Source: Balamuthia mandrillaris (taxonomy: Eukaryota). Taken from it: a stretch of 64,000 nucleotides of DNA. The position numbers were made by a program, and so were the translations under genes. This document shows positions 10,936-50,709 of this stretch, one piece after another. Every line of letters begins with the position of its first letter. The stretch's first letter is position 1. Below the pieces are notes generated by a model, which made no database searches, was not told the DNA's origin, and was given only the letters and a program-made list of their open reading frames with translations. The DNA is taken from NCBI GenBank assembly GCA_031835245.2, contig JAVKOQ020000067.1, positions 1 to 64,000 on the forward strand, in the 5' to 3' direction.

Positions 10936-11639
10936 TTAGTTGCCATAGGGCTTGGAGTCGTAGAACGCTTTGATCTTTGGCAAGCTGGCCACCTTCTCGT
11001 AGGCAGCCTTCACCTGGGAGAAGCCCTCAAAGACCTCACGGGCGCCCTCCAGCCTGAACACAAGGTCCAAAGAGACAAAGAGGTGAACATCAGCATAGGA
11101 GACCTTGTCGCCGACGAAGAAGCCAGTGCCGTTCTTGGCGAAGGCGCGCTCAAAGTGGCCCAACCATTTGGGCAGGTCCTCGGAGAGGAACTTGGCGAGG
11201 AGCTCGGCTTTGGAGGCCTCGGGGGCAAAGATCGCCTTGATGCCTGTAGAACCAAAGTCCACCACTCCCTCATTGAACTGATCGATCAATGCAGCTTCTG
11301 TTTCGTTCGCGCCTGGAAAGAAAGATTGATGAGTTTGACGAAGGATGAAAACAAAAAACGGATAGTACCATTGAAGCCGTGTTTCTTGGCAAGGTAGCGA
11401 GCGATGGCGTTGCTTTGGACAAGGTCCAGACCCTCGGGCTCCTGGTACCGGGGCACCTGGCCAAAGGCCAGCTCCTCTCCGTGCTTGCTCTTGTACTCGG
11501 CCCAGTCGCCGCCAGCGGAGCCCTTGAAGGAGAAGCCAACCCACTCGTAGTCCACCCCAGCGAGCTCGAGGAGCAAGCGAGGGACCTCAGCGCGGCCGGG
11601 GACGTTGAAGTAAGTGAGCGTTGGCTTTTCGACGGACAT
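10936..11639 (-). CDS. Glutathione S-transferase (sigma/alpha-like; one intron at ~11314-11367)
   Basis: LTYFNVPGRAEVPRLLL, FGQVP, LVQSNAIARYLA, FFVGDKVSYAD, LPKIKAFY. Confidence 0.93.
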
Positions 11640-12777
11640 TATGTGTGTGTGTTTGTTGCGGTTGTGTGGAGGCGAGAAAATGGTGGAAGAAGTGAGAAAT
11701 ATCTAAAGCCTGAGCAGAGGAGCTCATTTGTTTAATGAGAGTCATTAGGAATGCTCCGATAGGTTCCTATTGGTTTGTTTTAGGCTACAACGGAGGATTA
11801 AAGAGGTTAGAATTCACCGACGCGGAGGAGGAGGAAAACGGCAGCAAACGTGCAGTTCTTCTGCAGGGTGAAAAGCGCGGCTGACGTCATGGGCTACCCG
11901 AAGAGGTCCCGCTTTATTGTTTTACTGACGGTGCATCATTCTGCGATGACCTGTCCGTTTTCACTGCGGCAAACGCTTGACCGCCGCTATGGGTCAACTT
12001 GTTTTTCGTTTGGGCTTCTGTGGGCTTGAGGCAGCCTATTTCGCCAGGGCGAGGCGACGCAAAATCGAGATGTTCGCAGAGGAGTGAGATGGCTCGGTGC
12101 TCTGCCGAAAAAGCAAGAAAACAGAAGGGTATCCTCGAGCTGCTGGGCTACGAAAAGGCAGATGAACCAGGGTCACCCGACAATAAATACAAGAGAATCA
12201 GCGAAAAGTAATGCGATTTATTCAAATTCGTCGACAATCCGAGTTTTTTGTCCTTTTGCAGATTTATCCGAAATTCCGGGATCGCCGGAAGTTTCCTTAT
12301 TCGCGCGAATTATCCTTTTTTAGGCAAAACCACGCGACATTTCCTGCTCTTGTCCCCATTGGTATCCAAAGGGGAGGCGATGGAGGTGAGAATGAGGACC
12401 CGCTGGGGGTCGTGCGTGTGAAAAATAGCAAAAGAAACGGAAACGGAGGTGCTGGTTTTTTTTTTTGCCTGGAGGCGCCCATTCCCGTCAACGACAACGG
12501 TAAAAAAAACTACAAAATAAAAAGGGGGTCGGGGGGGGGAAGACAGATACTTCCTCGGGAAGGAGGAAAAAGAACAACAAGGTTCGTTTTGTCTTCGTCA
12601 TTGTTGCTTGTTGGCGAGGAATAACACCCCCCTTTTCCTCTCCCCTTTTTTTTTTTGGGATATTTCACCTAGAAAATAATTGCCATGGAAACGGGGTTTG
12701 TAGATGTTGGATAAGCGTCGACACCTTCCCTTTTTAGAAAAAAAGGAGGGGTCTACAAAATTATTCTCAGGAAAAAA

Positions 12778-13290
12778 ATGGAGCTGCACGAGGTGAAGGA
12801 GGAAAAGAAAGAAGAGAAAGCTGTTTTCACGCGCGAGAAACAGATTTGCGAACAACACTTTGTTTTTTCTATCCCCATAAACGCCTCTTTCCCTTTGTGG
12901 TATGGAGAGTTCGCCATCATTCCCAATTCTGTACTTTTACGCATGTTTCAGGAGCTCCTTCTTCCAAAGTTGTTGCCTTTGGTTTCAGTCAAGCCAAAGC
13001 CACTTCCTATCAAGTGTGCTGTTCGCTTGGATCACGACCTTCATAAATTAATCTTCGGTAGCGCCAAAGAGGTGTTCCTCAACGAAGCACAAATCAACCA
13101 AGTTTTTGGTGTTTCTATTCGCCTAAACCTCAAAGGCGGATGTTATGCCCTCCTTTGTGCTCCAATCAAAGTTGCACGAAAGAACAAGAACAAAAACACT
13201 GTGTTAGAGGTGAATTATGAAGTTTACAACAAATATGACGTCCTTCAATGGCCAGAACACTGGGTTTGTTTTCCTCCCTTTAGTTCTTGA
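12778..13290 (+). CDS. Hypothetical 170-aa protein, convergent partner of the RAG1-like transposase
   Basis: Uninterrupted ATG-initiated ORF with non-repetitive, globular-looking composition; no family recognised. Its stop (13288-13290) abuts the inferred transposase stop (13291-13293, minus strand). Confidence 0.6.
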   Translation: MELHEVKEEKKEEKAVFTREKQICEQHFVFSIPINASFPLWYGEFAIIPNSVLLRMFQELLLPKLLPLVSVKPKPLPIKCAVRLDHDLHKLIFGSAKEVFLNEAQINQVFGVSIRLNLKGGCYALLCAPIKVARKNKNKNTVLEVNYEVYNKYDVLQWPEHWVCFPPFSS

Positions 13291-16195
13291 TCATTCTTCT
13301 TCTTCATCTAACTCATACTCTTCTGCATCTGTTTCCTCTTCTTCCATAGTAAAACTTGCATCATCCTCATCACTGTTCTCCGCCTCAGCCATTGCCTCCG
13401 CCTCGACTGCTGCCTCCGCCTCGATCGCTGCCTCTGCCTCTGCCTCGATCGCCGCCTCTGCCTCCGCCTTGACCGCTGCCTCCGCCTTGACCGCTGCCTC
13501 CGCCTCGACCGCTGCCTCCGCCTGACTCCCGCCTCACACTGGCTAAGTTTCCGCCTTCAATCCGCTGCCTCCGCGACCGCTTGCCTCCCGCTTTGACCGC
13601 TAAGCTCTCCGCCTTTCGACCGCTGCCTCCGCTCGACCACTGCCTCCGCTTTGACCGCTGCTCCGCTCGACCAAGCGCCTTCCGCGACGCTGCCTCCACC
13701 TCGACTGCTGCCTCCGCCTCGACCGCTGCCTCCGCCTCGACCGCTGCCTCCACCTCGACTGCTGCCTCCGCCTCGACTGCTGCCTCCGCCTCGACTGCTG
13801 CCTCCTCCTCAACTGCTGCTTTTATACAGTATTTCCTCCAAAGTTCTGGGGCTGTTTCCAACGTCTCTGTGCTCCAATTTTTTTTTTGAGCTTTTGTTGT
13901 TCGTTGTCTCTTCCTTGGTCTATGAGGAAGTGTTTGCTCTGCTGCATAGTATTCAGCACGAAATTCAGCTGTCAATTGTTGGTAAGTAGCATTTTTAGCC
14001 CCTGAACCAAGATGATATCCACTTGTTTTTTTCTTTTTGTTGAGGAAATGCTTATTTTCAATATCATAATTAGCAAGCTTTTCCAAGCATCCAAAGCGTT
14101 CAAGGAAAAAGCCAAAGTGGTATACAAAGATATGGATATAAGGAGTAACTTCTGGGTCTCGATAACGTTCAACAAAGGCCTTACCAAAAGGTCGAGCCTC
14201 CTCTAACCACTGTTGAGCTGTAATTTTGACCTGTTTTCTTTTGGTAAATATATCTTTCTTTCCTTTGCTCTCCTCTGCTCTGCTTTCCTCTTCTCTTTCT
14301 TCCCTCTCCTCCCCTCTCCTCTCCTCTTTCCTTTTCTTCACTTCTTACCTTTGGTTCCATTGTTAAAGCAGCAAGATGTGTAAAGAGATTCCAAATTAAA
14401 CGAGTGTTATTCACCTTGGTTTGCTTTCTTGCTTTGTCTGTTCCTTCTCTAATCACTGTTTCAAATGTTTTGAAAAACTCCTCACGTTTCTTTATAATAT
14501 GAAGATACTCTGCTCGATTAAACTTTGCCTTTTTTACCCGTTGAGCCATTGTGACAAGTTTTTTGCTCTTGTTTGGAAGTTTTAGCTTTAAACTGCAAAA
14601 TATAGTTTCCCATTGCATCTCAAGGTTTGTGTTTCGTCCTACATCTTCACTTAATAACTCAAGTAGTTTCCTCATAATAGCCATAAATGCATGTAAATTG
14701 CATGGCACTGTATGTTTGAGGTCAAAGTTGAGAAGGCGCTTTCCACTAATTCCATAATAAGTTCGTGCAAACTCTTTTTTTTGTGATATTGAGAGTTCTT
14801 CTGCTATATTTCCAAGTTCTTGCATCAACTCTTCATCACGAAAGGGCCAATTACTTATATCAAAGTTTGCTATTTCATCTTTTGTTACTAGGCACCATGG
14901 GCATTTAAACTTTGACTTTGGATGAAAGCAAGAATACATTCCAACAAACTCAACTAGTGCTTTGAGATCACAGACAAGCACAGGCTCTAGTTGGTACTCT
15001 TTTCCTCCTGCTGTTATTGTTGCTCCATTAATCAACTCATTAATTGTCTTTGTTGCTTCTTTTAACTCAGTTCTAAGCTCTTGTCTATTTTCTTCTCCTT
15101 CAAAGACAATATATTGATGTGCATTCTTGCCTGACTTCGTTATTTCAAGGGTATACTCTTCCAAAATAAAGCTAAAGGTACCAACTTCATGACAACGCTC
15201 TCTTCGATTTGTCATAATTGCACCATCCCATGCAAACTTCACTATTAACTTTTTGTTCACTTCACTTTTTGGAGGATTGTTCTCAAGAATCCAGCTCATA
15301 TATTTCAATAATGGAAATTCCCATCCATGTCCACCCACTGTAACCTGTGGCTCCATAATAGAGTTCACCACTGCTTTTTGTCGTTGGATATGATGCAATG
15401 AAGCTGAATCATCAAGTCTAAAAACAGACATAGTATAGTTCCAATGTTCATCTGTAATCAGGGAAGTGTCCTTATAAGCAAGAAGCACCTCTAGTGTTGG
15501 CTGTGGTAAGTATGCTTTTAATTCTTCCACATTTTCTTGCAAAAATCGAATAACAGAGGGATCTGCTTTTACTATCTCTGCCACAGTTGCACCAAAGCTT
15601 TGATAAGGAGCTAAGCAATGAAGAAGGGCCTTCGCTTTATCAACAAAGAAGCTTTTTTCTCTTTGATCTCTGTGAATAATTTCCTCCCAAGGTATTGTCT
15701 ATTGTTTGTGTTATACAAGTGAACAAAAACAAAATAACAAGGGGAAATGAACCTGTAAATGTGCGTTGAGTTCTTTTATATCCCCTTCTCTCTTTTTTAG
15801 TCTGTTTTGTGCTTCTTCTTTACTAACTGCTTCCAATCTTTCTTTATCTTTTTTAGCTTTGGCATTTGTTGCTATATCCACACAGCGTTGACAGTCATCA
15901 GTACAGTTTTGATGGTATGTATGAAGTTCATGATATACACATGCACTTTGGGAAGAGTATGAATTCTTACAACCATTGGTGTGCTCACATGCCCAATTAC
16001 CAACAGTTGCATTACCAGTTCTCTTTCCTTCCAACTTAGCACATATAGAACAGGTTTGTGGGTTACAGCTGTGCCCTTTTTTTTTTTCTCATGCTTTGTC
16101 CTACTACCACTAGTCTGATATTGTACTCGATCTGCAGAAGCAGTGAGATTACAACAACTCTCGTGGCGACAAGTGAACGTCCTTTCTTCCTCCAT
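13291..16195 (-). CDS. RAG1/Transib-like DDE transposase with N-terminal Cys/His zinc motifs (introns ~15701-15752 and ~14231-14348; frame breaks at ~16080 and ~13520-13690)
   Basis: Ordered motifs KFAWDGA (~15225), EGEE, LVCDLKAL (~14968), FKCPWC (~14895), PCNLH (~14695), TPYIHIFVYH (~14135), NYDIENKH (~14058). These parallel the RAG1 core motifs SCDG, GYDEK, CTLC, DALH, YFHKTLAH and SEGNES. Confidence 0.75.
13385..13815 (-). repeat. 18-bp coding minisatellite (EAAVEA-like units), degenerate in the middle
   Basis: Repeated GCCTCCGCCTCGACCGCT units on the + strand, in the transposase C-terminal tail. Confidence 0.85.
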
Positions 16196-17147
16196 CTTTT
16201 GTTTGTCCGTTGTGTAAAAAAAAAAACGGCCACCTTAATTAATTTGAGGAGGTCCAATTTCTACAAAAGCTTGGACCTCAGTTTTTATGCCGCGGGCAAA
16301 CGCTGCGCCAGCAGGAAAAAAATAAAGGGTAGCCCCTCATGTAGAAATTGGATAACTTCAGTGTAGTTATTTGCAGTACATGTTGTCCAACAAGTGAAAA
16401 AAATTGCCAACAAGAACAACAACAACAAAATATCATTCACTTATTTCTGGGTTGAGTTGACCCTGTTGGCCAAAACTAAAACGAAAACTCATTCCCGTAC
16501 AAGACAACACCAAACGTAACCTGCCCACCCACCCCCCCACCAAACAAAAAGGAACGTGTTTCTTAGTCAAACAACCCAGCTACAAATATATATACGACCC
16601 AGCAACCAACCCCCCACTCCAACCCGCCTACCTTCGTTTCTTTTTATTTAGTTTTTTTAATACTTCTTTACACCAAAACCCTCCTCCTCTTCCTCCTCTC
16701 CGTCGGAACAAAACTTTAAAAAAAAAAAGCGTAGCAACAACAACTTGACTTTGCTACGTTTTTTTCTGCTGCCTTATTTTTTGGGGTTTGTTTTTGTTTC
16801 TGAAGGGAAAAGCTACCACTGCCATTCACCTGCACTGCCCCCCCCTCTTCCCCTCTCTCCTCAACCCAACCCCTACACACACACCAACAACAACAACAAA
16901 AAAACCCCCAAAGAGAGAGAACAGAGAAGAGGAGAGAGAGAGAGCAAAGGAGAACAACTACTCAGTACCTCTCCTCTTTTATTTTTTTGTTCTCCTGGAT
17001 AAAAAGGTATCGTATGTTAAACCAAAACAAAAACATAAAACAGAACAGAACAAAATCCCCCCCACACGAACCTTCGACTAGACTTTGACTCACCAAAAAA
17101 CAAACAAACACGAAAACTTTATTTCAGGACATCAGGAGAAACATCAA

Positions 17148-19962
17148 ATGCACCATCGAGCGCCTGCTGGAACTCCTCCTCCGACTTCTGCCAATGCCAA
17201 CACCAGTGCTTCCGCCTCGCTCTTTTGCGCCTCCGCCACTTTGTCGCCGGTCAACCATCGGGCAACAACGGGTCTACCTTCCCAACAACCCCAACCCCAG
17301 CCTGCTGCTTCTTTCCTAGGGGAGCTTCAACGGCCAAACGCTTCTTCTTCCTCTTGCTTCTCCTCGCCTCCCCAATCCCTACGACAGTCCACCACCTTGC
17401 CCCCCCTTTCTCCTTTGAACGTGAACCTCGGCATGAGCCTTAACTTGCCTTTGCCCTCCTCTTCCTCCTTTTATTCCCCTTCTTCCTCAACGTTAACTCC
17501 GCCTTTTGAGGGTGCCGTCCAGCCGTCCAACAACATGTCATATCCCCATTTTCCTATTGCTCCGTCCTCTTCTCGCCCTCTTTGTTCTTCCACAACGGCG
17601 CCTACCTCTCTCTCTTCTTCTAGAGACGGAACGAGCTGTTCCCCTGCCAGCAGTTCGGGACTTCTCAAAGGCAAAACCTTCTACCTCGATGTAACTACTG
17701 CATCCCTCAGACAGCAGCTGTGCGCGCAATTGTGCTCTCTTGGCGCTGTTCGTATCCCCTTTCTCTCTTTTTCTCTCTCTCTCTCTCTCTCTCCGCCAGC
17801 AATGACTAACCATTATTTCTCTCTTCCACATCTGGAAAACAGACTGTCCATCCTTTCTTCTCCGACGCGGTGTCTCATATGATAACCGACCGCCACATTT
17901 CTTCGGAGGAGAAACGACAGATCATACAACAAAACCAACAACTTGCCGCCGGTCGGTCCGCCTCCTCTGAGAGATCGGGCGTTTCTCCGCCGCTATCTCC
18001 TCCATCCACCTCCTCCTCTTCCTCCTCTTATCCGTGCAGCAGCGCTGCCAACGCCAACGAAGGTTGTCCTTCTCCACTGTCTTCCGCCTCTTTCTATCCT
18101 CCTACCGATCGATCCAACGCCTCCGATCCCGAATCCAATGAAAGGTTTGTCCTCTCTCTCTCTCTCTCTCTCAATGTTTCTCTAGTGGTTAACATATTTT
18201 TCTTTCTAAAACACAGTTCACTAATCTCCCAACTTCGAAGCCTGAAGAAGTCTCATCTATCTTCTTCTGCCACCACAAAGAGATCCTGTCCTCGCCAACA
18301 ATCCACTAAAACCTTAAGCCCTTCCTCTTCCTTTTGTTTTCCTCCTTCGCCAGCTTCCTCGTGTACTTCTCCCATGTCGTTTCCTCATCACCACCTTCAG
18401 CGGATCCTCAATCCTTCCTCTTTGCCGCTACCATCTACCAACCACAATGTTGTTTCTGCTCCTTCGGGCTTGGCCCTTATCGGCTTGGCTTACAGCCTCA
18501 ACAAAAAGATTTACCATGTGAACAGTATCCTTTTCAACTGTCCTTATTTTCTTCCCTTCCTTAAGTTTCGTTTTCGCTCGTTCTTTCTCTTTCTTGTTTG
18601 TATTAGCCTTACATTGTTTTACTTAAAGAATTTCAACCGTGGTTGGATAAACACTGTTCGGAGCTCAAATCAACAACTACGGCAGGCTTTCCTCATCTTC
18701 AACAGCATTCCCAACAAAGAGCTTGTAATAACAAACTCCAACTTCAAATGCCATCTCAACGTTGTCTTCAAGCTTCTTCTGCTCCTTCTTCTTCAGGTGT
18801 TGTGCCAACATCGTTGCTGGGAGCAGACCCCATCTCCATTATTGCCGGCTCTCCTTGTCTTGCGCCTCCTCCCATTTCCATTCCGATTCCCATTTCCATG
18901 CCTCATTCTTCGACCCCAAACCTTCTCCAAAACGACACCATTCAGCAACGACAGCGACAACAACCGCAACATGCAGGTTGTGCTTCTTCGTTGGAACAAC
19001 CTTCTCTTCGTTTTCCGTTTGATCTTCGGCCAAAAACCAAGTACATCATGGTTGAAGGTTCGTTTACTTTTTAACAAAACCATTTACTCTTATAGTAGTA
19101 ACACTACGAAAAAAATAGATTTAGAAGGAGCGTTCAAACCGATTTGCAAACACTTTACTTGTGATGGAAGTTCCGGCTCCGAGGTTCCCACTCTCAACTT
19201 CAACGCCCCTAAAGGATGCTCTCCTTTCACTTCCTCTCCCTCCTCCTCTTCTGCTGTGGATAGAAGAACAACTGCAATCACCTCTAATTTAAACAACAAT
19301 CGATCCGCACCTTCAGTTCTTCTCCCTTCTCCAACTTCACCTTTTCTTCAAAATGACAACCACTTCTCAGCGACACCAACAATTTCATCGTCAGTAAAAC
19401 GGAAACGGAAAAAGACGGATACAACAACAACATCAAAGAGAAAAAAGAGGAGCATCAACAACGGACAAACGTCAACGAGCAGCCTCTTCTTCGCGTTGTC
19501 CTGTTGTTATTGTATTAGATAGTGAAGAAGAAGAGCAACAAGAAAGCAAGAAAGAAGCAGAACAGCAACAAGAAGAAAACGAAGCAGGAGAAGCGACGCT
19601 AGCAAGTGCCTAACAGCCCTTCTCTTCCTTGTTTTCGACTTCCGCCTTTGGTTCTTTCTTCTGCATCTTCTTCGCGTTGTCCTGTTGTTATTGTATTAGA
19701 TAGTGAAGAAGAAGAGCAGCAAGAAAGCAAGAAAGAAGCAGAACAGCCAACAAGAAGAAAACGAAGCAGAAGAAGCGACGCTAGCAAGTTGCCAAACAGC
19801 CCTTCCCTACCTTGTTTTCGACTTCCGCCTTTGGTTCTTTCTTCTGCGGCTTCTTCCTCATCACCTTCGTCATTTGTATCTTCTACAACACTCAACAATG
19901 GTGGCGGTCAGCCGTGGAGCCTGCATCTGCCTCCTCCCTTTGTACCCATCATCAACGTTTAA
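17148..19962 (+). CDS. DBF4: Dbf4/ASK-like Cdc7 regulatory subunit (motifs N and M; low-complexity, multi-exon)
   Basis: Motif N/BRCT-like: LKGKTFYLDV...LCSLGA..PFFSDAVSHMITDR. Motif M: KYIMVE|DLEGAFKPICKHF...PTLNFNAPKGCSPF. No motif-C zinc finger was seen, and the 3' end is uncertain. Confidence 0.6.
19485..19848. repeat. Tandem duplication of ~181-183 bp
   Basis: TCTTCTTCGCGTTGTCCTGTTGTTATTGTATTAGATAGTGAAGAAG... begins at both 19485 and 19666; the first copy has single-base deletions relative to the second. Confidence 0.9.
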
Positions 19963-38833: not shown

Positions 38834-39160
38834 GGAAGAGAGAAGAGAGAGGGGAGAAACAACAGAGAAGAGCGAAGGCAAACAGTGAAGAGAGAGAAGA
38901 AAGAAGAGAAAAGAGAAAAAGGTGGAATGTCAGCCAGTTCCACAACGCCGCCTTTATTAACTTTTCCTTTTATATAGGGCAATGCAAATTTTCTTGGATA
39001 TTCTTGCAGAAAGGCACTCCTCAAAAGGAAGTGCCATGGCTTTTGGTGAGTGGAGATTGTTCGTTTATTCGATGTAATGCTTTGGACAAACTCACCACCC
39101 CCAGGAAAAAAATAAGAAAAAAAAAAACAAACAGAAACAACACCAACATCAGCACCAACC

Positions 39161-41254
39161 ATGAAGCGCAATAGACAGGCATACATCCTCCTGGCCTTGC
39201 TTGCTTTCACGTTTCTTCTTTACAAATTTGTCTCTTCATCATCTACGCCTGCTCCCAAGCCATCGAGTTACTTGGAGCTGCAAGAAAACTATCCTGGGAG
39301 TTGTCACCTTGACGCCTTCATGAAGGTGGACAACGTCCACCCAGGCTATACCGCCAGCGGCTATGTTTATGCCAAGAAAGCTCAAAGAGCCCGTTTCCAG
39401 TGGAAAGTGTTCTCCGAGAAAACACGGACCTACTTTTTGAGGCTTCGCTACTCTGCTGGGCAACCCTTCAGCGTCTCTCTTCTGGTCAACTGGAGACCTA
39501 CCCGACAACTTCAAATGGAGGCCACAAGTTCTTCCTGGAAGTTCCTTTTCCTCTCTGCCACCTTACGCGAGGGCGTCAACAGCCTTGTCCTCCAAACCAA
39601 TCAAGACACCCAAAACGTTTCTACCCTTCTCGTGGACAGTCTGGAGTTATACAACGAGCACAACTTCCTTCTTCCGGTGGAGTGCCACAACAACCAACGG
39701 GTGGCGATGCTTCAACCCAACCCTCGATGCGTGGCGGGGGCAGTCTTTCGAGACGAGACGGTGGACTGCGGAGGGGCTCGTCTGGGGATCTCCTGCACGG
39801 GCGACCAAGAGGACCAACCCGCGGTCATCACCTTGCAGAACGCCTCCTTGAAGAACCTCCGCCTGGCAGCAGACGGAGGGGCGGACGGCATCCATTGCGA
39901 CAGCGGGGATTGCACCCTGGAGAACGTGGTGTGGGAGGACATCTGCGAGGACGCCGCCACGCAAGCGGCGGAAGGCGGGACCATGACCATCAAAGGAGGA
40001 TGGGCGTTCAACGGGAAAGGGGGGTGGGGAGACCGCCCGGACAAGATCTTCCAACACAACTCCAAGAACAGCAAGGTCATTGTGACGGGAGGCTTCACCG
40101 CCAAAGGACACAATGGCATCCTTTACATGTCCTGTGGGAACTGCGTGGACAACGGAGGGCCTCGCTTTTCACACTTGGAGGATGTGAGGGTGGAGGGAAA
40201 GCTTGGATATGTGGCCCTTGCAAACGGGAACTACGGAGACAAGGCCACCATTCGAAACATGGTCATGCAACAAGAGAATCACCGGGCTTGCTTTGAATAC
40301 TTTGGGGTGGACAAGACCCTGGTGGACGGCGAGATGAAGGGACAACGATGGAATACGGAGCTGTGCGATGTCTCGCCAGAGGACGTGAAGACGTTGGACA
40401 CCATTCATGTGGTGGTGGCAGTGAACAAGGAATACCAGGCGGGGTTGTTGGCATTGCTTCGCTCCATCGGGAAGAACACCCCTCACCCACAAGCCGTCAT
40501 GGTGCACGTCATCCTGTGCAACAAGAAGGACGGGGAAGGAGGGGAGGAGGCCCTTTGGGCTGTGGGTCAAGAGATTCTGTGCGAAGGATGTCCTCCCGTG
40601 GAGGTCACAGTGTTCCACTTGGAGAAGAGCATCAAGGAGAAGCTGAACAACAAGTACCGCGAGGAGCTGAACGAGGAGAGCAACTACGCTCGTCTGTTCT
40701 TGCACGTGTTGTTCCCTTCCTTGAAGAAAGTCATTTGGTTGGACAGCGACACCTTGGCCTTGGGAGACCTGCGTGAGCTCTGGCACACCTCGATGAAAGG
40801 GAAAGACACATCCTTGGCGGCCGTTCCTCAAGCAAACAAACCACTGAGAAGTGCAGTGAACAATGCTCGGGTGAAAGAGCTGTTCAAGAGTCGGTACGGA
40901 AAGAAACGGTACGATTCTGAGGAAGCAACGTACAATGCAGGGGTGTTCATGGCAGACCTGGAAAAGTGGCGGAGAAGGAAGGTGGAGGAGGAGTTCCTTT
41001 GGTGGATTGAGCAAAGGAACAAAGAGGAGGACCTCTGGATGTTTGCCACGCAACCTCTTCTCATCGTGGTGTTTCACGGCCAATGGCAACAGCTCGGGCA
41101 AGAATGGAACGTCATTGACCTGGGATGGAGGAACGATGTCTCGGAGGAGAGCATCCAGTCGGCAAAGGTGCTGCATTGGAATGGAGAGCAGAAACCCTGG
41201 CTGCCTTCTGCTTTTGAGGAGTACAAAAAGATATGGGATGAGTATTATGTGTAG
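39161..41254 (+). CDS. Copy 1: signal-anchor + CBM35/CBM6-like + PL3 pectate-lyase-like + GT8 glycosyltransferase fusion (697 aa, intronless)
   Basis: N-terminal TM YILLALLAFTFLLY. CBM-like HPGYTASGYV...LRLRYS...LREGVNSLVL. PL3 motifs GADGIHC..GDCTLENVVWEDICEDAAT, DKIFQHN, SCGNC, NGNYGDKATI. GT8 motifs NYARLFL, KKVIWLDSD, YNAGV, VLHWNGEQKPW. Confidence 0.88.
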   Translation: MKRNRQAYILLALLAFTFLLYKFVSSSSTPAPKPSSYLELQENYPGSCHLDAFMKVDNVHPGYTASGYVYAKKAQRARFQWKVFSEKTRTYFLRLRYSAGQPFSVSLLVNWRPTRQLQMEATSSSWKFLFLSATLREGVNSLVLQTNQDTQNVSTLLVDSLELYNEHNFLLPVECHNNQRVAMLQPNPRCVAGAVFRDETVDCGGARLGISCTGDQEDQPAVITLQNASLKNLRLAADGGADGIHCDSGDCTLENVVWEDICEDAATQAAEGGTMTIKGGWAFNGKGGWGDRPDKIFQHNSKNSKVIVTGGFTAKGHNGILYMSCGNCVDNGGPRFSHLEDVRVEGKLGYVALANGNYGDKATIRNMVMQQENHRACFEYFGVDKTLVDGEMKGQRWNTELCDVSPEDVKTLDTIHVVVAVNKEYQAGLLALLRSIGKNTPHPQAVMVHVILCNKKDGEGGEEALWAVGQEILCEGCPPVEVTVFHLEKSIKEKLNNKYREELNEESNYARLFLHVLFPSLKKVIWLDSDTLALGDLRELWHTSMKGKDTSLAAVPQANKPLRSAVNNARVKELFKSRYGKKRYDSEEATYNAGVFMADLEKWRRRKVEEEFLWWIEQRNKEEDLWMFATQPLLIVVFHGQWQQLGQEWNVIDLGWRNDVSEESIQSAKVLHWNGEQKPWLPSAFEEYKKIWDEYYV

Positions 41255-41674
41255 ATGACCAACAACAATGTTTTAAAAGGTGTATATGTATGTACATTGG
41301 AAACACTTCAAAGGTTTGCCCTCCTTGTCGAGAGAGTTTGTTCAGCTCACCTTCTGCATCCTCTGCTACAACGAACTGTCCTCCTTGCTCACCACCCTCA
41401 GCGATTAGTAACCCTTCTCCCGTCCTTGCAAACGGTGACAAGTTTCTTCCGTCAACCCATTCAGCGGCTAGAAGCACTTCTGCAACCAAGGGGAAGAGCA
41501 TCTGGATAGGAGGGATAAGTGGCGGAGGAGGAGGAAGGGGCAAAAGCAGAAGGGGGAAACAGGGCCAGTGGTGAGGAAGTATTTCGACGAGGGTGGGTGT
41601 GGTGGGAGTTGGTTTGTGGGTTGGCCAGTTTTGCGGCAACAATGCTTCCGTCTTGTATTGGGAATCAAAAAAAA

Positions 41675-41746
41675 TGGTTCCGGCGAGTGTTGATCTCGCG
41701 ACCTTGAGCGTGTTAGGCTCACGTGCTACCGTTGCACCACGGAACC
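41675..41746 (-). tRNA. tRNA-Val (anticodon AAC)
   Basis: Reverse complement folds as a cloverleaf: acceptor GGTTCCG/CGGAACC-A, anticodon arm TGAGC-CTAACAC-GCTCA, T arm GCGAG-ATCAACA-CTCGC. An oligo-T terminator follows. Identical to the copy at 53756. Confidence 0.85.
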
Positions 41747-42287
41747 GCTTCTTGCCTTCTGCTTGCGGAAGGTTAGTTCCACGAACGGAGCTCGAGCCCT
41801 GTGCCCTCTCTGTGCTAGTTAGTGTTTGAGGGTGAGTACGGAGTTGTGGTGTTGTGGTAAAATTGCGACAGTGGATTGGAGGAACTCCTTCGGAGTTCTG
41901 GTCGGAATTTTTGAGGAGAGGTGGTTTCTTGGGCGCTCTAAGAAGTTTATTCTTAGTGCGCGTTTTTCTGAAGTTTAGACGGACGTAGTTGGCGTTCGGC
42001 TCAACTTGTGGGTGAGGTTCTTCCCGCCCGCCCACCCTCTCTGCCCATCTCTGGAGATGCGTAGGTTCATTGAGGTTAGGCCAATGTGTATAGGCCTGTA
42101 GGTGCCTTTATTGAGCGTAATAAAGGCTCCTGAGGAGGGAGCGCGCTTCTATCAGCTTCTCTGCATGGTGAGAGGGCCAGGGCTCGGCGTAGTGGGGAGT
42201 GGAACGTGGATAAATTGCCTTTCCACTTGTGTCTCAGTTCTTTGATCTGACGATGATTAGTCAGGAGCCTTTGGCTGTAAAGGCCAT

Positions 42288-44528
42288 TCATTGTGCATTC
42301 TCTAATGCGATTGTATTATTTTGCACATAATACTCATCCCATATCTTCTTGTACTCCTCAAAAGCAGAAGGCAGCCAGGGCTTCCGCTTGCCATTCCAAT
42401 GCAGCACCTTTGCCGACTGGATGCTCTCCTCCGAGACATCGTTCCTCCATCCCAGGTCAACGACGTTCCATTCTTGCCCGAGCTGTTGCCATTGGCCGTG
42501 AAACACCACGATGAGAAGAGGTTGCGTGGCAAACATCCAGAGGTCCTCCTCTTTGTTCCTTTGCTCAATCCACCAAAGGAACTCCTCCTCCACCTTCCTT
42601 CTCCGCCACTTTTCCAGGTCTGCCATGAACACCCCTGCATTGTACGTTGCTTCCTCGGGGTCGTACCGTTTCTTTCCGTACCGACTCTTGAACAGCTCTT
42701 TCACCCGAGCATTGTTCACCGCACTTCTCAGTGGTTTGCCTGCTTGAGGAACAGCCGCCAAGGATGTGTCTTTCCCTTTCATCGAGGTGTGCCAGAGCTC
42801 GCGCAGGTCTCCCAAGACCAAGGTGTCGCTGTCCAACCAAATGACTTTCTTCAAGGAAGGGAACAACACATGCAAGAACAGACGAGCGTAGTTGCTCTCC
42901 TCGTTCAGCTCCTCGCGGTACTTGTTGTTCAGCTTCTCCTTGATGCTCTTCTCCAAGTGGAACACTGTGACCTCTACCGGAGGACATCCTTCGCACAGAA
43001 TCTCTTGACCCACAGCCCAAAGGGCCTCCTCCCCTCCTTCCCCGTCCTTCTTGTTGCACAGGATGACGTGCACCATGACGGTTTGTGGGTGAGGGGTGTT
43101 CTTCCCGATGGAGCGAAGCAATGCCAACAACCCCGCCTGGTATTCCTTGTTCACCGCCACCACCACATGAATGGTGTCCAACGTCTTCACGTCCTCTGGC
43201 GAGACATCGCACACCTTCGTATTCCATCGTTGTCCCTCATTCTTCCCGTCCACCAGGGTCTTGTCCACCCCAAAGTATTCAAAGCAAGCCGGATGATCCT
43301 CTTGTTGCATGACCATGTTTCGAATGGTGGCCTTGTCTCCGTAGTTCCCATTTACACCTGCCACCCGCTGGACCATCCCCTCCACCCTCACATCCTCCAA
43401 GTGTGCAAAGCGAGGTCCTCCGTTGTCCACGCAGTTCCCACAGGACCTGTAAAGAGCACCATTGTGTCCTTTGGCGGTGAAGCCTCCCGTCACAATGACC
43501 TTGCTGTTCTTGGAGTTGTGTTGGAAGATCTTGTCCGGGCGGTCTCCCCACCCCCCTTTCCCGTTGAACGCCCATCCTCCTTTGATGGTCATGGTCCCGC
43601 CTTCCGCCGCTTGCGTGGCGGCGTCCTCGCAGATGTCCTCCCACACCACGTTCTCCAGGGTGCAATCCCCGCTGTCGCAATGGATGCCGTCCGCCCCTCC
43701 GTCTGCTGCCAGGCGGAGGTTCTTCAAGGAGGCGTTCTGCAGGGTGATGACCGCGGGTTGGTCCTCTTGGTCGCCCGTGCAGGAGAGCCCCACACGAGCC
43801 CCTCCGCAGTCCACCGCCTCGTCTCGAAAGACTGCCCCCGCCACGCATCGAGGGTTGGGTTGAAGCATCGCCACCCGTTGGTTGTTGTGGCACTCCACCG
43901 GAAGAACAAGTGGAAGAGGAAGAGGAAGAGGTGATTGGTTGTTGGGGTGGTTGTGGGGGTGGATGGTGAGGCTGTCGATGAGGAAGCCAGAAAGGTCCTG
44001 TGGGGTCTTGTTCTCGCTGGAGGCGTGGAGGACGATGCTGTTGACGCCCGTTTGCAAAGTTGCGGGGAGCAAGACGGTCCGCCAGGAGGAGTGCTGCGTG
44101 GCTTCCATGTGCAGCTGAGCAACCGCTCTCCAGTTGAGGAGAAGGGAAAAAGAAAGGGCTTGGGAAAGAGAGGAAGAATAGCGGAACTCCAAAGTGTGGC
44201 TTTGCCTTTCAGCGGCGTGAACTTTCCATTGGAAACGGGCCTGATGAGGGTGCTCACTGTGAACATAGCCGCTGGCGGTGTAGCCTGCAAGGACGTTGTC
44301 CACCTTCATGAAGGGGTCAAGGTGACAGCTGCCAGGATAGTTTTCTTGCAGCTCCAACCTTGCCGCATTGCCGTTTGAGAGGGAAGAAGAAGAAGAAGGA
44401 GGAGAAAAAGAAGAGGGAGAGGTGAAGAAGGGCCCGTTCCAAATAAAGAGCTGGAGCAGCAAGGCAAGGCACGCCAAGAGGGTGTAAAACAAACGTCGGT
44501 TGCTGCCCGGCCGCAACATGGCAAACAT
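42288..44528 (-). CDS. Copy 2: signal-anchor + CBM35-like + PL3-like + GT8 fusion (746 aa, intronless)
   Basis: Same architecture as copy 1, with near-identical PL3 and GT8 regions; PL3 motif reads GALYRSCGNC. Confidence 0.88.
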   Translation of the reverse strand: MFAMLRPGSNRRLFYTLLACLALLLQLFIWNGPFFTSPSSFSPPSSSSSLSNGNAARLELQENYPGSCHLDPFMKVDNVLAGYTASGYVHSEHPHQARFQWKVHAAERQSHTLEFRYSSSLSQALSFSLLLNWRAVAQLHMEATQHSSWRTVLLPATLQTGVNSIVLHASSENKTPQDLSGFLIDSLTIHPHNHPNNQSPLPLPLPLVLPVECHNNQRVAMLQPNPRCVAGAVFRDEAVDCGGARVGLSCTGDQEDQPAVITLQNASLKNLRLAADGGADGIHCDSGDCTLENVVWEDICEDAATQAAEGGTMTIKGGWAFNGKGGWGDRPDKIFQHNSKNSKVIVTGGFTAKGHNGALYRSCGNCVDNGGPRFAHLEDVRVEGMVQRVAGVNGNYGDKATIRNMVMQQEDHPACFEYFGVDKTLVDGKNEGQRWNTKVCDVSPEDVKTLDTIHVVVAVNKEYQAGLLALLRSIGKNTPHPQTVMVHVILCNKKDGEGGEEALWAVGQEILCEGCPPVEVTVFHLEKSIKEKLNNKYREELNEESNYARLFLHVLFPSLKKVIWLDSDTLVLGDLRELWHTSMKGKDTSLAAVPQAGKPLRSAVNNARVKELFKSRYGKKRYDPEEATYNAGVFMADLEKWRRRKVEEEFLWWIEQRNKEEDLWMFATQPLLIVVFHGQWQQLGQEWNVVDLGWRNDVSEESIQSAKVLHWNGKRKPWLPSAFEEYKKIWDEYYVQNNTIALENAQ

Positions 44529-45149
44529 CTTTCCGTTCTTTCTTACCCCACCTACTTTGTTCTTGCGTTACGCCCCCTTCCTCCCTCTGTTGCCTGACGG
44601 AGTAAAATGTCCGGGGATGCCAAATGTGCTGGCCGGCGGTAGTTGGGAGAAAAATTTGACGGCAGCTCTGGACATATTTTGCCCTCGACCCTCCTCGCAC
44701 CGATGATCACATATGATGATCTGATCACGTTATTGGTGCGCGAAGAAGGGCAAAAAATGTCCAGAATTTATACGCATCGACGGCCCAGCTGACACAAAAG
44801 CAAGCGACTCCTTGCAAGGGGGGGACAAGACATAAGAGGTTCCCTTGTTTGCCTGCCCTCGGCGCTGAGCACATCGGACGCAGCTGAGCCCTTTTGCTTC
44901 GCGTGGTTGGCGGCTCCTAGGAGAGTAAATAAACGGTGTTATTGCATCGCACAAAAAAAGAGAAGAAAAGAAAATAAGAAGAGCAAAGAGAGGAGAGAGG
45001 AGCGGAGACGGAGGAAACAGAGGCGACAGGAGGAGGTTGGTCCAAATACAGAAGAAAAAGAAGATGGATAGAGGATCGAAATGATGAAGAGTCCGGCTGG
45101 GAACAGTTTTATTGTCGTTCCTTGTGAACGGTGCACTTTCTTGGCCGAT

Positions 45150-46390
45150 TCAGGCAAGAGAAGATGCTTTGGCGTTTCTGGAGGTGGCTCTCTTGGAGCG
45201 AGCATTGCCTCCACCGGGCCTTCCTTTGACTTTCTTCCCCTCTCCCAAAAAGTCGATTTGTTCTTGTGATATCTGCGTAGTTCCATCATCAGAAAGAAGA
45301 AAAAGGAGAGAGAGAAGCACAAAGAATACATACACCCCAAGCTTGGCTGGAAATGATCTCTGTGACATCGTTCAGCACGTCTCCTTGAATATCAATTGTA
45401 CCATCCTCCGCATTGACACTGGCTCCACAACCTAACTTCTTTTTGAACAGGGAACTGGCGTCCTTCAGGTTAACACCTGTAGGTTGTAATAAAAAGAGAG
45501 TGAGTCAAGGTACAAAAGGCTAGAGAGAGAGAGAGAGAGAGAATGCGAGAACAGGACGCCCAAAAGAACGAGAAGAGAGGACAGAGAAGGGCGGGGAGAG
45601 AACTAACCAAATGTTCCTAACCCTGTGATCGTGGTAACAAACTTGCGTTTGCCTCTTTGAGACCGGAAAATGCCAACCATGGCATCTTCTGGCGGTCCCT
45701 ATTGCGGTTGAGCAAAAAAGAAAGAGGATGAGCGATCAAAATGACCAGCGTTGCGCTGCCCAACAGGGTTGAAGTCATAACTAACCTGGTCTTTCTTCTT
45801 TGCCTTTGCTGTTCCTTTGCCACCTTCAGGTTTGTGATTTAGAAAATAGAGAGAGAGAGAGAGAGGAGAGAGGAGAGAGAGAGAGAGCAGATCGGAGACA
45901 GAACGAGACAGAACAAGAGCAGAGCAACAAGTGAGACAAACGCATAAACAAAGAAGCAAGGAGCTTTTCCGTACCTCGTTTCTGTCGCTTCTTTTCGCCT
46001 TCATCCTCCCCTTCCGCTCCCTCTTTGCCCTCCTCTGTGCTTTCCCCCTTCTCGCCTCCCTCTTTCTCCTCCAAGATCTCTGGACAGTGCTCCCTCAACC
46101 ACGGCTTGCACGCTTCAAAGTCTGGTCCGTACTCACAGAACTCTGGAGGCAAACCACAAACTGTTGGCCAGCAGCACCCAAAAATAATAATCAATCAATC
46201 AATCAATCATTGGATTAGCTTGTCCCGAGTGGAAGCTTAGAATAGAATAAGAAAACACACACACACCTCCACAGTAAATAACGGTCTTGGCAACAAGTCC
46301 AGTTGGTGCAGCCTCACCGGAGGACGTTTCCTCGGCAGAAGTAGCAGCTGCAGCAGGGGTGGCCTCGTGAGCCGTCGCGGTGTCTTCCAT
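45150..46390 (-). CDS. DENR: Density-regulated protein (DENR/Tma22, SUI1 domain), multi-exon
   Basis: VIYCG|VCGLPPEFCEYGP..EACKPWL, RGKRKFVTTITGL.TFGV.LKDAS..FKKKLGCGASV...IDIQGDV. Confidence 0.9.
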
Positions 46391-47699
46391 CGCTCTCTGT
46401 TCGCGTAGCAGCTGGGTTGCTTGTCGACAAATTTCCAGAAAAATTTTTTACCGTTTTTTTCATTTATTCAATTTTTTGTTGTTATTTTTCGAATATTTGT
46501 CTGCAAAAAATGACAAGAGAGAGTAAAATTCAAACCACCTATCGAAAATCAAACAAACACACAAACGAAAAAGGAACGCGAAAGGCGAGCAGAGCGCTGT
46601 AGTGGGCTGACATCCAGGAATTGTTGGCGATCGCTGGGCTGACCTCAACAACACTAACCACAACGCCAAACGCCAACGGCAAGCTATAACAACAACGGCG
46701 GCCAACAACAAACAATCTGTTGGGAGGTGGAAACAATCACCATGGCAATGACAACAACATCGACGAGGATGTTTTTGAAAACCTTCTTCGACGATGTTGG
46801 ACGCTCACGAAGCTGCCTGACCCAGAACTTTGGGGTGGAGAGCATCGCTGCCATGTCATTGCTGAGGCCAAGGCCGCAAAGGAAGGATCGACCAGTGGGA
46901 TCGACTTGGCCCGAGTGGTCACCGACGTGTCCCATTGCCTCTTGCTTGTTTCCCCCCGCAACACATGGCCAAAGACGAGAACTTCTTCACCCACATCCCA
47001 ACTCTCTGGAACACAAGGAGATTCCAAGGTCGATAGGGTGGTTCACGAGAAGCTCTCCGTGCCATTGCTTTAACAGAACACACGAAAGAAAGCATTCTTT
47101 TTTTTTTTTTTGTACAAAGAGGCTTGGTTGGTTTTGACTGGAGCAGCAACTGCTTGTGAGGCCATTGGATGAGCGTGCTGGTTGAAGTGGAATAGCGGGA
47201 GAAGAGGGCCACGGGATGTCCAGAGAAGGAGGTGTTCGAGAAGGAATGCCCTTTTCAATGGAAACAGCCAGCCGGGAAAACAATACATCATGCGAGGTCC
47301 TCGCATTCGACGATAGAACGCAGCGACGTACGAAGCTGGACTTCGGGTGTGTGTGGTAAAAGTTGTGACTGTCTGGGTGCTCGTTCCGGAGATGAAAACA
47401 AATGAAAGCAAAACTAGTTTCTTGCAAGAACAGCAAATAGAAAAGAAGAAAAAAACACAGAAACACAACAAAGAAGCAGCGAATGACGGGAAAAGGTCTT
47501 TGTTGGTTGTTTTACGCCGCGAAAGTGCTGTGCTATCGGAAGGGCGTCTGAGAGGGAGCGTTTGGACGACGAACAAACGCTCCCTCTCTTGCAGTTCAGC
47601 GGTGGGTCTTTCTCCGTTGAGCGAGCGATGAGGACGTGCTGGGGAGTGAAGGTAATTGGCTGTGCCGCTTCCTTTCTTGCACCGTTCATTGTTCATACT

Positions 47700-49914
47700 C
47701 TAATGCGATATTGTATTCTGCACGTGGTACTCATCCCATATCTTCTTGTACTCCTCAAAAGCAGAAGGCAGCCAGGGCTTCCGCTCTCCATTCCAATGCA
47801 ACACCTTTGCTGACTGGATGCTCTCCTCCGAGACATCGTTCCTCCATCCCAGGTCAATGACGTTCCATTCTTGCCCGAGCTGTTGCCATTGGCCGTGAAA
47901 CACCACGATGAGAAGAGGTTGCGTGGCAAACATCCAGAGGTCCTCCTCTTTGTTCCTTTGCTCAATCCACCAAAGGAACTCCTCCTCCACCTTCCTTCTC
48001 CGCCACTTTTCCAGGTCTGCCATGAACACCCCTGCATTGTACGTTGCTTCCTCAGAATCGTACCGTTTCTTTCCGTACCGACTCTTGAACAGCTCTTTCA
48101 CCCGAGCATTGTTCACCGCACTTCTCAGTGGTTTGTTTGCTTGAGGAACGGCCGCCAGGGATGTGTCTTTCCCTTTCATCGAGGTGTGCCAGAGCTCACG
48201 CAGGTCTCCCAAGGCCAAGGTGTCGCTGTCCAACCAAATGACTTTCTTCAAGGAAGGGAACAACACATGCAAGAACAGACGAGCGTAGTTGCTCTCCTCA
48301 TTCAGCTCCTCGCGGTACTTGTTGTTCAGCTTCTCCTTGATGCTCTTCTCCAAGTGGAACACTGTGACCTCCACGGGAGTCGCACAGAATCTCTTGGCCC
48401 ACAGCCCAAAGGGCATCCTCCCCTCCTTCCTCATCCTTCTTGTTGCACAGGATGACGTGCACCATGACGGCTTGTGGGTGAGGGGTGTTCTTCCCGATGG
48501 AGCGAAGCAATGCCAACAACCCCGCCTGGTATTCCTTGTTCACTGCCACCACCACATGAATGGTGTCCAACGTCTTCACGTCCTCTGGCGAGACATCGCA
48601 CAGCTCCGTATTCCATCGTTGTCCCTTCATCTCGCCGTCCACCAGGGTCTTGTCCACCCCAAAGTATTCAAAGCAAGCTGGATGATTCTCTTGTTGCATG
48701 ACCATGTTTCGAATGGTGGCCTTGTCTCCGTAGTTCCCGTTTGCAAGGGCCACATATCCAAGCTTTCCCTCCACCCTCACATCCTCCAAGTGTGCAAAGC
48801 GAGGCCCTCCGTTGTCCACGCAGTTCCCACAGGACATGTAAAGGATGCCATTGTGTCCTTTGGCGGTGAAGCCTCCCGTCACAATGACCTTGCTGTTCTT
48901 GGAGTTGTGTTGGAAGATCTTGTCCGGGCGATCTCCCCACCCCCCTTTCCCGTTGAACGCCCATCCTCCTTTGATGGTCATGGTCCCGCCTTCCGCCGCT
49001 TGCGTGGCGGCATCCTCGCAGATGTCCTCCCACACCACGTTCTCCAGGGTGCAATCCCCGCTGTCGCAATGGATGCCGTCCGCCCCTCCGTCTGCTGCCA
49101 GGCGGAGGTTCTTCAAGGAGGCGTTCTGCAGGGTGATGACCGCGGGTTGGTCCTCTTGGTCGCCCGTGCAGGAGAGCCCCACACGAGCCCCTCCGCAGTC
49201 CACCGCCTCGTCTCGAAAGACTGCCCCCGCCACGCATCGAGGGTTGGGTTGAAGCATCGCCACCCGTTGGTTGTTGTGGCACTCCACCGGAAGAACAAGT
49301 GGAAGCGGAAGAGGAAGAGGTGGTTGATTGTGGGGGTGGATGGTGAGGCTGTCGATGAGGAAGCCAGAAAGGTCCTGTGGGGTCTTGTTCTCGCTGGAGG
49401 CGTGGAGGACGATGCTGTTGACGCCCGTTTGCAAAGTTGCGGAGAGCAAGACGGTCCGCCAGGAGGAGTGCTGCGTGGCTTCCATGTGCAGCTGAGCAAC
49501 CGCTCTCCAGTTGAGGAGAAGGGAAAAAGAAAGGGCTTGGGAAAGAGAGGAAGAATAGCGGAACTCCAAAGTGTGGCTTTGCCTTTCAGCGGCGTGAACT
49601 TTCCATTGGAAACGGGCCTGATGAGGGTGCTCACTGTGAACATAGCCGCTGGCGGTGTAGCCTGCAAGGACGTTGTCCACCTTCATGAAGGGGTCAAGGT
49701 GACAGCTGCCAGGATAGTTTTCTTGCAGCTCCAACCTTGCCGCATTGCCGTTTGAGAGGGAAGAAGAAGAAGAAGGAGAAAAAGAAGAAGAAGAAGAAGA
49801 GGGAGAGGTGAAGAAGGTCCCGTTCCAAATAAAGAGCTGGAGCAGCAAGGCAAGGCACGCCAAGAGGGTGTAAAACAAACGTCGGTTGCTGCCCGGCCGC
49901 AACATGGCAAACAT
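47700..49914 (-). pseudogene. Copy 3 of the CBM35-PL3-GT8 fusion, frameshifted at ~48378
   Basis: An 8-nt deletion (AGGATGTC, in the ILCEGCPPVEV codons of copy 1) splits the gene into ORFs 48298-49914 and 47700-48434. A hAT element lies 24 bp upstream of the ATG. Confidence 0.8.
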
Positions 49915-50709
49915 CTTTCCGGTCTTTCTTACCCCCCCTAAAGCGGACCAATCTGGCGGTCTACAATAAAAGGCCTTTTTAGGGCAAATAGTCGACTAAA
50001 AATACCTAATATAAGCTGACACGTCAGCAATTATCGATGATTTAGCTCTATTTTGGACTGCAAAAGCTGTCACGAGGACAACACAAAAGAAATCAAAGCC
50101 AACAGTAGTAGGCCTTTCTTCGGTGGGAGCAGGGAGCAAGCACAATAGTATTTTTTTTTTACATTATCCGCTATGTTGCTTCATATGACCAACCGCCAAC
50201 CAAGGTAGGTTTGAGGCCATGTGAAATAATACAGCGCATAATATAAAAAAAAAACGGAAGACCTTGTTTGATGGCAAGACCAACGAACCCTGAGAAAACC
50301 AGGACAGGGAGAGAGATGGTAGCCCCTAAACTCTGAGCGTATCTTTCAATAGAAAGACAAACTCAACATCTACTGAAGCGATCAAGTACTACTAGGGACA
50401 GTTTACCCTGGGCAAAAAGTATAGTAGTCGCATGGTATGTACTTCATGTAGAGACCATTTCCTTGTACTTCTTTACAAAGTAGCCATCTTCCTTATGTTA
50501 AACACAAGGACCTACCAGGTAGGTGTGCATGAGAGCATGTTGTTTGTTATTGTGCTTCCTTAATGAGTCAGTCTAGCCAACCCACCAAGGAGGACAACAA
50601 CCAACACACCATGATAGATGTAGTTAGTATAGCTTTTGGTGCAAAAGGGGGTGGAATTAAGAGAAACTGCCACTTTACCTGAGTACAGTGAGCAGCTCTG
50701 TTGAGCTCT

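Follow-up and report, generated by a model that had tools for sequence, protein, structure and literature searches.

The open reading frame that begins at position 12778 in the 64,000-nucleotide stretch of Balamuthia mandrillaris DNA analysed here (the window) is the second gene of a RAG1/Transib-like DNA transposon. In the reading that we favour, its product, a 162-aa protein unrelated to RAG2, likely helps or regulates transposition of the element. This partner gene travels in the element, is convergent with the transposase in distant relatives, is constrained at the protein level and is transcribed and spliced. The original prediction of a two-gene RAG-like system is borne out in that a conserved, transposon-borne gene other than RAG2 stands convergently beside a transposase of predicted RAG1/Transib fold. 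A second-gene family on this type of transposon is real and conserved, and it is apparently undescribed: no published account of the element or of the partner family was found in the literature, Repbase and subscription journals being outside the scope of the search. The survey of RAGL and Transib elements across eukaryotes is without such a partner (PMC9435367), and five amoebal names gave no matches in one of its supplements, where names in tables given as pictures would escape. The Balamuthia genome preprint, in the part available, describes transposons as still to be annotated (10.1101/2025.02.25.640156). It has long been asked how RAG1 became dependent on a partner; the descriptions of RAG1-type elements so far are of Transib, without a partner, or of elements with RAG2L.

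Structure of the element and of the partner gene

The whole DNA transposon spans 3698 bp (12666..16363) and was delimited by comparison with an empty site and with other copies. The empty site is found in an X1 contig, where the flank ending at 12664 is joined straight to 16364; a contig shared by multiple copies begins at 12669, and another copy diverges from the window sequence just beyond the right end of the element. The left end (12666..12674, plus strand) reads CACCTAGAA in this copy and, judging from a first-letter mismatch at 12668, CACTAGAA in the others. The right end (16356..16363, minus strand) reads CACTGAAG here and CACTAGAAG, in the inward direction, in other copies, and X3 contigs, X4 contigs and a loose end of X1 all have one extra T behind 16359. 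The flanks, TATTT and TAGTT, match at 4 of 5 positions, the ends of this copy differ from those of the other copies, and the empty contig is compatible with a target duplication of 0-1 bp or with an excision footprint. The termini at 12666 and 16363 are of the form CAC...GTG; in metagenomic relatives, L001 has CACTGCG at either end and L002 has CACTGTG on its left. The end regions have in common only short words of 8-12 nt, few ends having been compared.

Two non-autonomous derivatives were also recognized, in which a loss of 3068 bp has removed all of the transposase and fused partner codons ~128-131 to the right end. The segment absent from the first is 13165..16232 and that absent from the second ~13169-16236, and their loose ends match the C-termini of the database proteins P0001 and P0002, respectively, so that the joining of the ORF to the right end accounts for both proteins. 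Both derivatives truncate the partner ahead of its most conserved C-terminal motif. The empty-site contig and the two deletion derivatives place the partner ORF inside the transposon. Copy number and linkage in Balamuthia are based on alignments of reads and contigs together with database proteins. Contig depth was ~2x that of the flank over the transposase and ~3x over the ends, depths that are not equal to copy numbers.

In its unspliced reading the ORF runs from an ATG at 12778 to a TGA at 13288-13290 on the plus strand (12778-13290, 170 codons), and an ORF of at least 162 aa was found in none of 1000 shuffles of 12666-13350. A contig of X11, an RNA-like run, has no differences over 12790-13263 and then jumps to 13350. 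The 86 nt skipped, 13264..13349, start with GT and finish with AG and form the partner intron (plus strand), which holds the TGA and within which the acidic-tail frame of the transposase ends on the minus strand. The coding exon is 12778..13263 (plus strand), the stop of the spliced gene is a TAA at 13350..13352, and the spliced product of 162 aa, with C-terminus PEHW, is identical to the database protein P0003. The alignment of the partner family stops just past the W-P motif, as at this spliced C-terminus. The clean 170-aa ORF claimed at first therefore exists as a frame, but its TGA is intronic, so that the partner is 162 aa long and the ends of the two genes are interleaved; the TGATCA at which both stops were said to abut without a spacer loses its TGA with the intron. 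An unspliced 170-aa form of the partner may occur alongside the spliced one.

The transposase and known two-gene elements

The transposase gene lies on the minus strand. Its predicted exon 1 (15753..16195) encodes a Cys/His-rich N-terminus and has one frame break at a T-run (~16076-16089), which X1 and X3 contigs read differently and the NCBI protein P0009 reads through; this break is probably an assembly error. Exon 2 (14349..15698) has 450 open codons, containing FAWDG and VCDL, with the first two catalytic Asp residues, as well as CxxC and LH, while exon 3 (13291..14230) contains H-x4-H, NYDIE with the catalytic Glu, an Ala/Glu repeat and the acidic tail. The two predicted introns (15699-15752 and 14231-14348) have GT-AG ends and fit the homologues. 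With its 940 nt (remainder 1), exon 3 as assembled has a frame break inside an imperfect 18-bp tandem array with a noisy middle part (13357..13858, repeat family D1), and either assembly error or decay may be responsible. The acidic tail (EEYELDEEEE) closing at TCA 13291-13293 on the minus strand, which had been assigned to the transposase, is present as a frame, but in the assembly it is read in a different frame from the catalytic core.

The motifs FAWDG, VCDL, CPWC, H-x4-H and NYDIE, in agreement with the CMCT definition (PMC12730594, in part), are found in the window transposase and its relatives, which occur with 32-47% identity in Balamuthia and in metagenomes; none of 215 candidates in viral contigs and none of 55 in prokaryote genomes was a relative. 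No RAG1 or Transib match was obtained by sequence, either with Pfam or with PDB sequence profiles, and the link to these enzymes is therefore one of fold alone. With a modest model of the paralogue P0004 (pLDDT 58, built with 13 sequences), Foldseek found 44 matches at E<=1e-3 and, among the matches listed, all were to RAG1, HzTransib or BbRAG1L: the best match was RAG1 (E 3.8e-6, TM ~0.3), with HzTransib at 4e-5 and BbRAG1L at 6e-4; Hermes, at 0.087, is above this threshold. To judge from this model, the transposase is a RAG1/Transib-fold enzyme.

The spacing from the second catalytic Asp to the Glu is 260 in P0017 and 265 in P0007, the only two relatives counted (P0004, P0012 and P0014 were excluded because their E position was a pattern mismatch), compared with 253 in RAG1 and 206-214 in classic Transib (PMC1131882, in part). 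This spacing is a likeness to the RAGL elements (ProtoRAG, protostome RAGL and AanRAGL), with which the Balamuthia element also shares a RAG1-type fold, CAC ends and a convergent second gene inside the element. The differences are that the second gene encodes a 162-aa alpha/beta protein instead of a kelch plus PHD protein, that the single readable Balamuthia site has no clean 5-bp target duplication, that the ends of the element have ~8 bp in common and that its transposase goes undetected by Pfam and PDB sequence profiles. The length of the target duplication is variable in Transib (bioRxiv 2026.08.26.747230, in part). Since the second gene is not RAG2, the Balamuthia element is not a RAGL member. 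Transib, for its part, has been described alone, whereas the Balamuthia element carries a conserved second gene whose family has neither a Pfam nor a clear PDB match.

Maize MuDR, with its genes mudrA and mudrB, is similar in having a convergent pair of which the second gene is small and of unknown function, and in producing antisense RNA by failed termination between the genes (PMC3440606, in part). MuDR belongs to another transposase superfamily and has long TIRs; the likeness is one of layout. The Balamuthia partner is most likely a helper or regulator of transposition, in an element that combines a RAG1-type enzyme with a layout like that of MuDR. TnpA of the CACTA elements is another lineage-specific accessory protein of a DNA transposon. 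Kolobok Kol0 (transposase plus KolX) carries one as well (PMC9587614, in part); KolX, however, has a Cys-rich zinc fold, while the Balamuthia partner is without a conserved Cys cluster.

The partner family and its possible role

When metagenomes were scanned with the transposase, 15 loci, belonging to 8 distinct elements, were obtained from 198 candidates. Compared alone with these 15 loci, to which alone the E-values refer, the window ORF matched L011/L012 (31% over 153 aa, E 2.5e-17), L001 (E 1.2e-12), L002 (E 3e-12) and L004 (E 8e-4), where the homologues follow the transposase and are encoded on the other strand. A family profile matched 8 of the 15 loci, with the matches on L002, L007 and L011 being partly circular; all are tail-to-tail and they represent 5 of the 8 elements, or 5 of the 6 that extend past the transposase. 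The elements of L005 and L015 terminate within the transposase. The remaining element (L008-L010) has a long insert, which we take to be unrelated, after a broken transposase, and no partner was found there by the profile. The tail-to-tail arrangement with this transposase, whose constancy was to be checked, holds for all the far-reaching metagenomic elements except this one. In the two intact relatives the stop-to-stop gap is 38 nt (L001) and 11 nt (L002).

The comparison of substitution rates that had been proposed as a check indicates constraint on the protein: pS (0.73-0.83) is higher than pN (0.32-0.53) in all five partner pairs, synonymous sites being saturated. From the absence of a Pfam family, and from a first, single-sequence search that returned only two other clusters, one could have suspected a normal host gene or a frame that arose by chance beside the transposase. 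We regard this as extremely improbable: the ORF is missing from the empty site, is present in the derivatives and is under constraint, and its homologues converge on the transposase in 5 distinct metagenomic elements. The condition under which the original prediction was to be abandoned, namely a single-copy host gene or an unconserved, untranscribed frame, is contradicted on all three counts. With a five-sequence profile the search reached 120 clusters at E<=1e-3, 48 of them at E<=1e-10, among 1.84 billion; the 10 clusters looked up included another Balamuthia subfamily (two contigs) and Paradermamoeba levis. Some of the 120 clusters, which are known without genomic context, may be unlinked to a transposase.

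The partner alignment consists of 96 sequences (P0003 and 95 matches, short and repetitive ones excluded), and the partner is modelled as a compact alpha/beta domain containing three helices (pLDDT 90.5, pTM 0.75), covering about residues 40-160. Pfam gave no family for the protein and 3 single-member matches among the 96 members, none of them common to several members. Against the PDB, the best E-value by sequence was only 0.34, Foldseek gave no matches to the model at E<=1e-3 and VIA-align reached a best Z of 4.3, with none of 48,161 chains at Z>=5; the ESM Atlas contained no usable match to the window ORF. The weak VIA-align rows (R3H, winged helix, parts of TnpB/Cas12) are below Z 5 and were not accepted as evidence of a fold. 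The lack of a clear structural match may be compatible with a new fold, but it is not a proof of one, and the family, with 120 clusters and a confident model, represents a target for structure determination.

RAG2L is convergent with RAG1L in ProtoRAG-type elements (PMC7204232, in part), and the partner occupies the same slot, as a strongly reduced RAG2 homologue would. Such an origin is nonetheless hardly credible, since one small alpha/beta domain with three helices contradicts a six-bladed propeller, the alignment has no conserved Cys/His cluster and no PHD-type Cys/His pattern, and none of the 96 family members has a kelch or PHD Pfam match. These results agree with the earlier judgement that the protein is too short for a kelch propeller plus PHD. 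In divergent elements, a transposase with the RAG1 fold has retained another partner, one without a clear structural match, in the convergent position that RAG2L takes elsewhere, and it can now be tested whether a second subunit is a recurring need of RAG1-type enzymes and whether the surface that binds RAG2 is used.

As regards function, the basic alpha/beta domain would bind nucleic acid, at the ends of the element or in the transpososome, and would thereby promote or tune transposition. A role as a nucleic-acid-binding helper or regulator, proposed by analogy with the second genes of other DNA transposons, which act in this way, appears somewhat more plausible than not; the domain has a net positive charge in 91% of 92 members, which hints weakly at nucleic-acid binding. 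Direct contact of the partner with the transposase is possible, though we would not expect it. It is slightly more doubtful still that amoebal RAG1-like transposases independently gained a subunit of unknown fold in the RAG2 position, with the read-through RNA acting as an antisense brake; if true, evolution would have tried out the two-subunit RAG design a separate time in these amoebal elements.

Antisense RNA across the transposase

Two X11 contigs describe a non-coding RNA, antisense to the transposase, that runs from 13727 to 16180 on the plus strand, with limits counted from lengths, and that has 10 GT-AG introns of 56-131 nt: 13982-14073, 14244-14368, 14419-14504, 14625-14680, 14761-14891, 14994-15070, 15506-15586, 15761-15856, 15915-16006 and 16054-16137. 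At each of the 10 X11 joints within the element, the skipped segment reads GT-AG on the plus strand, which is that of the partner; 8 of the joints carry the flag 'between: not known', and since the X11 contigs are unstranded the strand is deduced from the splice dinucleotides. The RNA nature of X11 is presumed; its contigs leave intergenic regions uncovered and have host genes spliced, and it is the only run of this kind here. The antisense overlap of the two genes that had been suggested is therefore larger than guessed, spanning the whole transposase. A second long protein encoded by the antisense exons was considered and discarded, because the joined exons have stops in all three plus frames and a longest open stretch of 109 codons.

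Similar features were found in the metagenomic relatives. Between the sister contigs L006/L007/L013/L014, 5 of 5 length differences are GT-AG on the partner strand; between L011 and L012 this holds for 1 of 2, and the other, a 48-nt difference in L012 examined as a candidate intron, is a repeat copy. Several internal blocks of P0005, a nearly identical protein, are missing from L011. Antisense intron positions mostly differ between elements, and polypyrimidine-AG (acceptor-like) motifs number 28 on the partner strand against 2 on the other, so that the antisense splicing looks opportunistic; probably the recurring feature is the read-through itself.

We propose that, as the stops leave almost no spacer, the partner mRNA would continue antisense over the transposase, where the T-rich strand would be spliced at cryptic sites, and that the antisense RNA would damp transposase expression while the partner is still made. 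Between the contig of the ORF and those of the antisense RNA, 13423-13726 is left unbridged, and we consider a single continuous transcript a reasonably good bet; that the antisense RNA has a regulatory, damping effect on the transposase is less probable than this. With spliced antisense read-through seen in three elements, built-in self-control of a transposon can be tested in a simple way.

In a stronger form of this idea the partner would be an inhibitor, its protein and the antisense RNA together serving as a built-in brake on copy number. Antisense splicing over the transposase in three distinct elements, and an overlap that is unavoidable given the layout, are in line with it, but extra antisense RNA in maize MuDR left sense transcripts unsuppressed (PMC3440606, in part), the antisense intron sites are mostly unconserved and derivatives with a truncated partner are not in obvious measurable excess. 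We therefore judge an inhibitor to be quite unlikely.

A transposase-sense GT-AG splice was seen at none of the 10 X11 joints, and one predicted transposase intron is retained. That the partner is seen expressed while transposase-sense splicing is not would suit an anti-silencing or chromatin factor, acting outside the cut-and-paste reaction to shield the element against repression by the host; TET/JBP cargo, for which a role in the escape from silencing has been proposed, is found in related CMCT elements (PMC12730594, in part). The partner, however, has no catalytic or chromatin-reader motif (no Pfam family, Cys/His cluster or clear fold match), and we hold this role to be unlikely, though less so than that of an inhibitor. 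A helper or regulator of transposition remains our preferred reading.

Other runs gave little signal over the partner. In the raw-read run X17, of which 3% was considered, no reads fell on the ORF, against 31 on the neighbouring host gene, which we take to be a GST gene, while run X13 gives shallow coverage of 183 nt of the ORF. The host-gene intron in which the element is inserted (12582..16366, plus strand) has GT-AG ends and is skipped in an X11 contig, where 12581 is followed by 16367; the host exon upstream of this intron is probably untranslated. Since the partner strand has the same sense as the host gene, read-through from the host could feed the antisense RNA.

Variants of the element and relatives of its two genes

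Exactly 3068 bp are lost in both deletion derivatives of the RAG1/Transib-like element (window 13165-16232 and 13169-16236), in identical register and with different microhomologies. Where the partner and transposase genes adjoin, one contig of sequencing run X1 skips 13245-13367 at a short microhomology, which suggests that another variant exists with a small deletion there.

In the metagenomic locus L007, which holds a related transposase, the partner frame departs from the family pattern at about position 1741, directly before the C-terminal W-P motif, whereas the database protein P0020 retains this motif; from these sequences, alternative splicing within the coding end of the partner is suggested. 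A broken transposase followed by an insert is found in two other such loci (L008, 2900-4892; L010, 1800-5916), and the insert, with its endonuclease- and reverse-transcriptase-like frames, is probably retroelement-like, judging by its motifs. Concerning database transposases, the NCBI source annotation of P0004, P0012 and P0014 reads 'unconventional myosin-VIIb-like' and 'Caldesmon 1', names that are apparently wrong.

A candidate end of the antisense RNA

The plus-strand spliced RNA that crosses the transposase (13727..16180) could terminate at an AATAAA on the plus strand at 16321, just within the right end of the element; the only other plus-strand AATAAA in 13264-16363 lies at 15165.

Host genes and inverted repeats in the window

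The element lies inside the upstream intron of a plus-strand host gene (12505-12581 and 16367-19500), for which a Pfam search returned no match; its stretch near 17680-17750 may resemble a BRCT/Dbf4-type motif. On the minus strand, an expressed glutathione S-transferase gene (11000-11639; Pfam GST_N, E 3e-12) is spliced at 11313-11368, and paralogues of it were seen among the sequences matched to the window.

Farther on, at 39100-50000, a long gene is present in three near-identical copies (97-98%) of alternating orientation, forming large inverted repeats; their open frames, of 565-759 codons, start signal-anchor-like.
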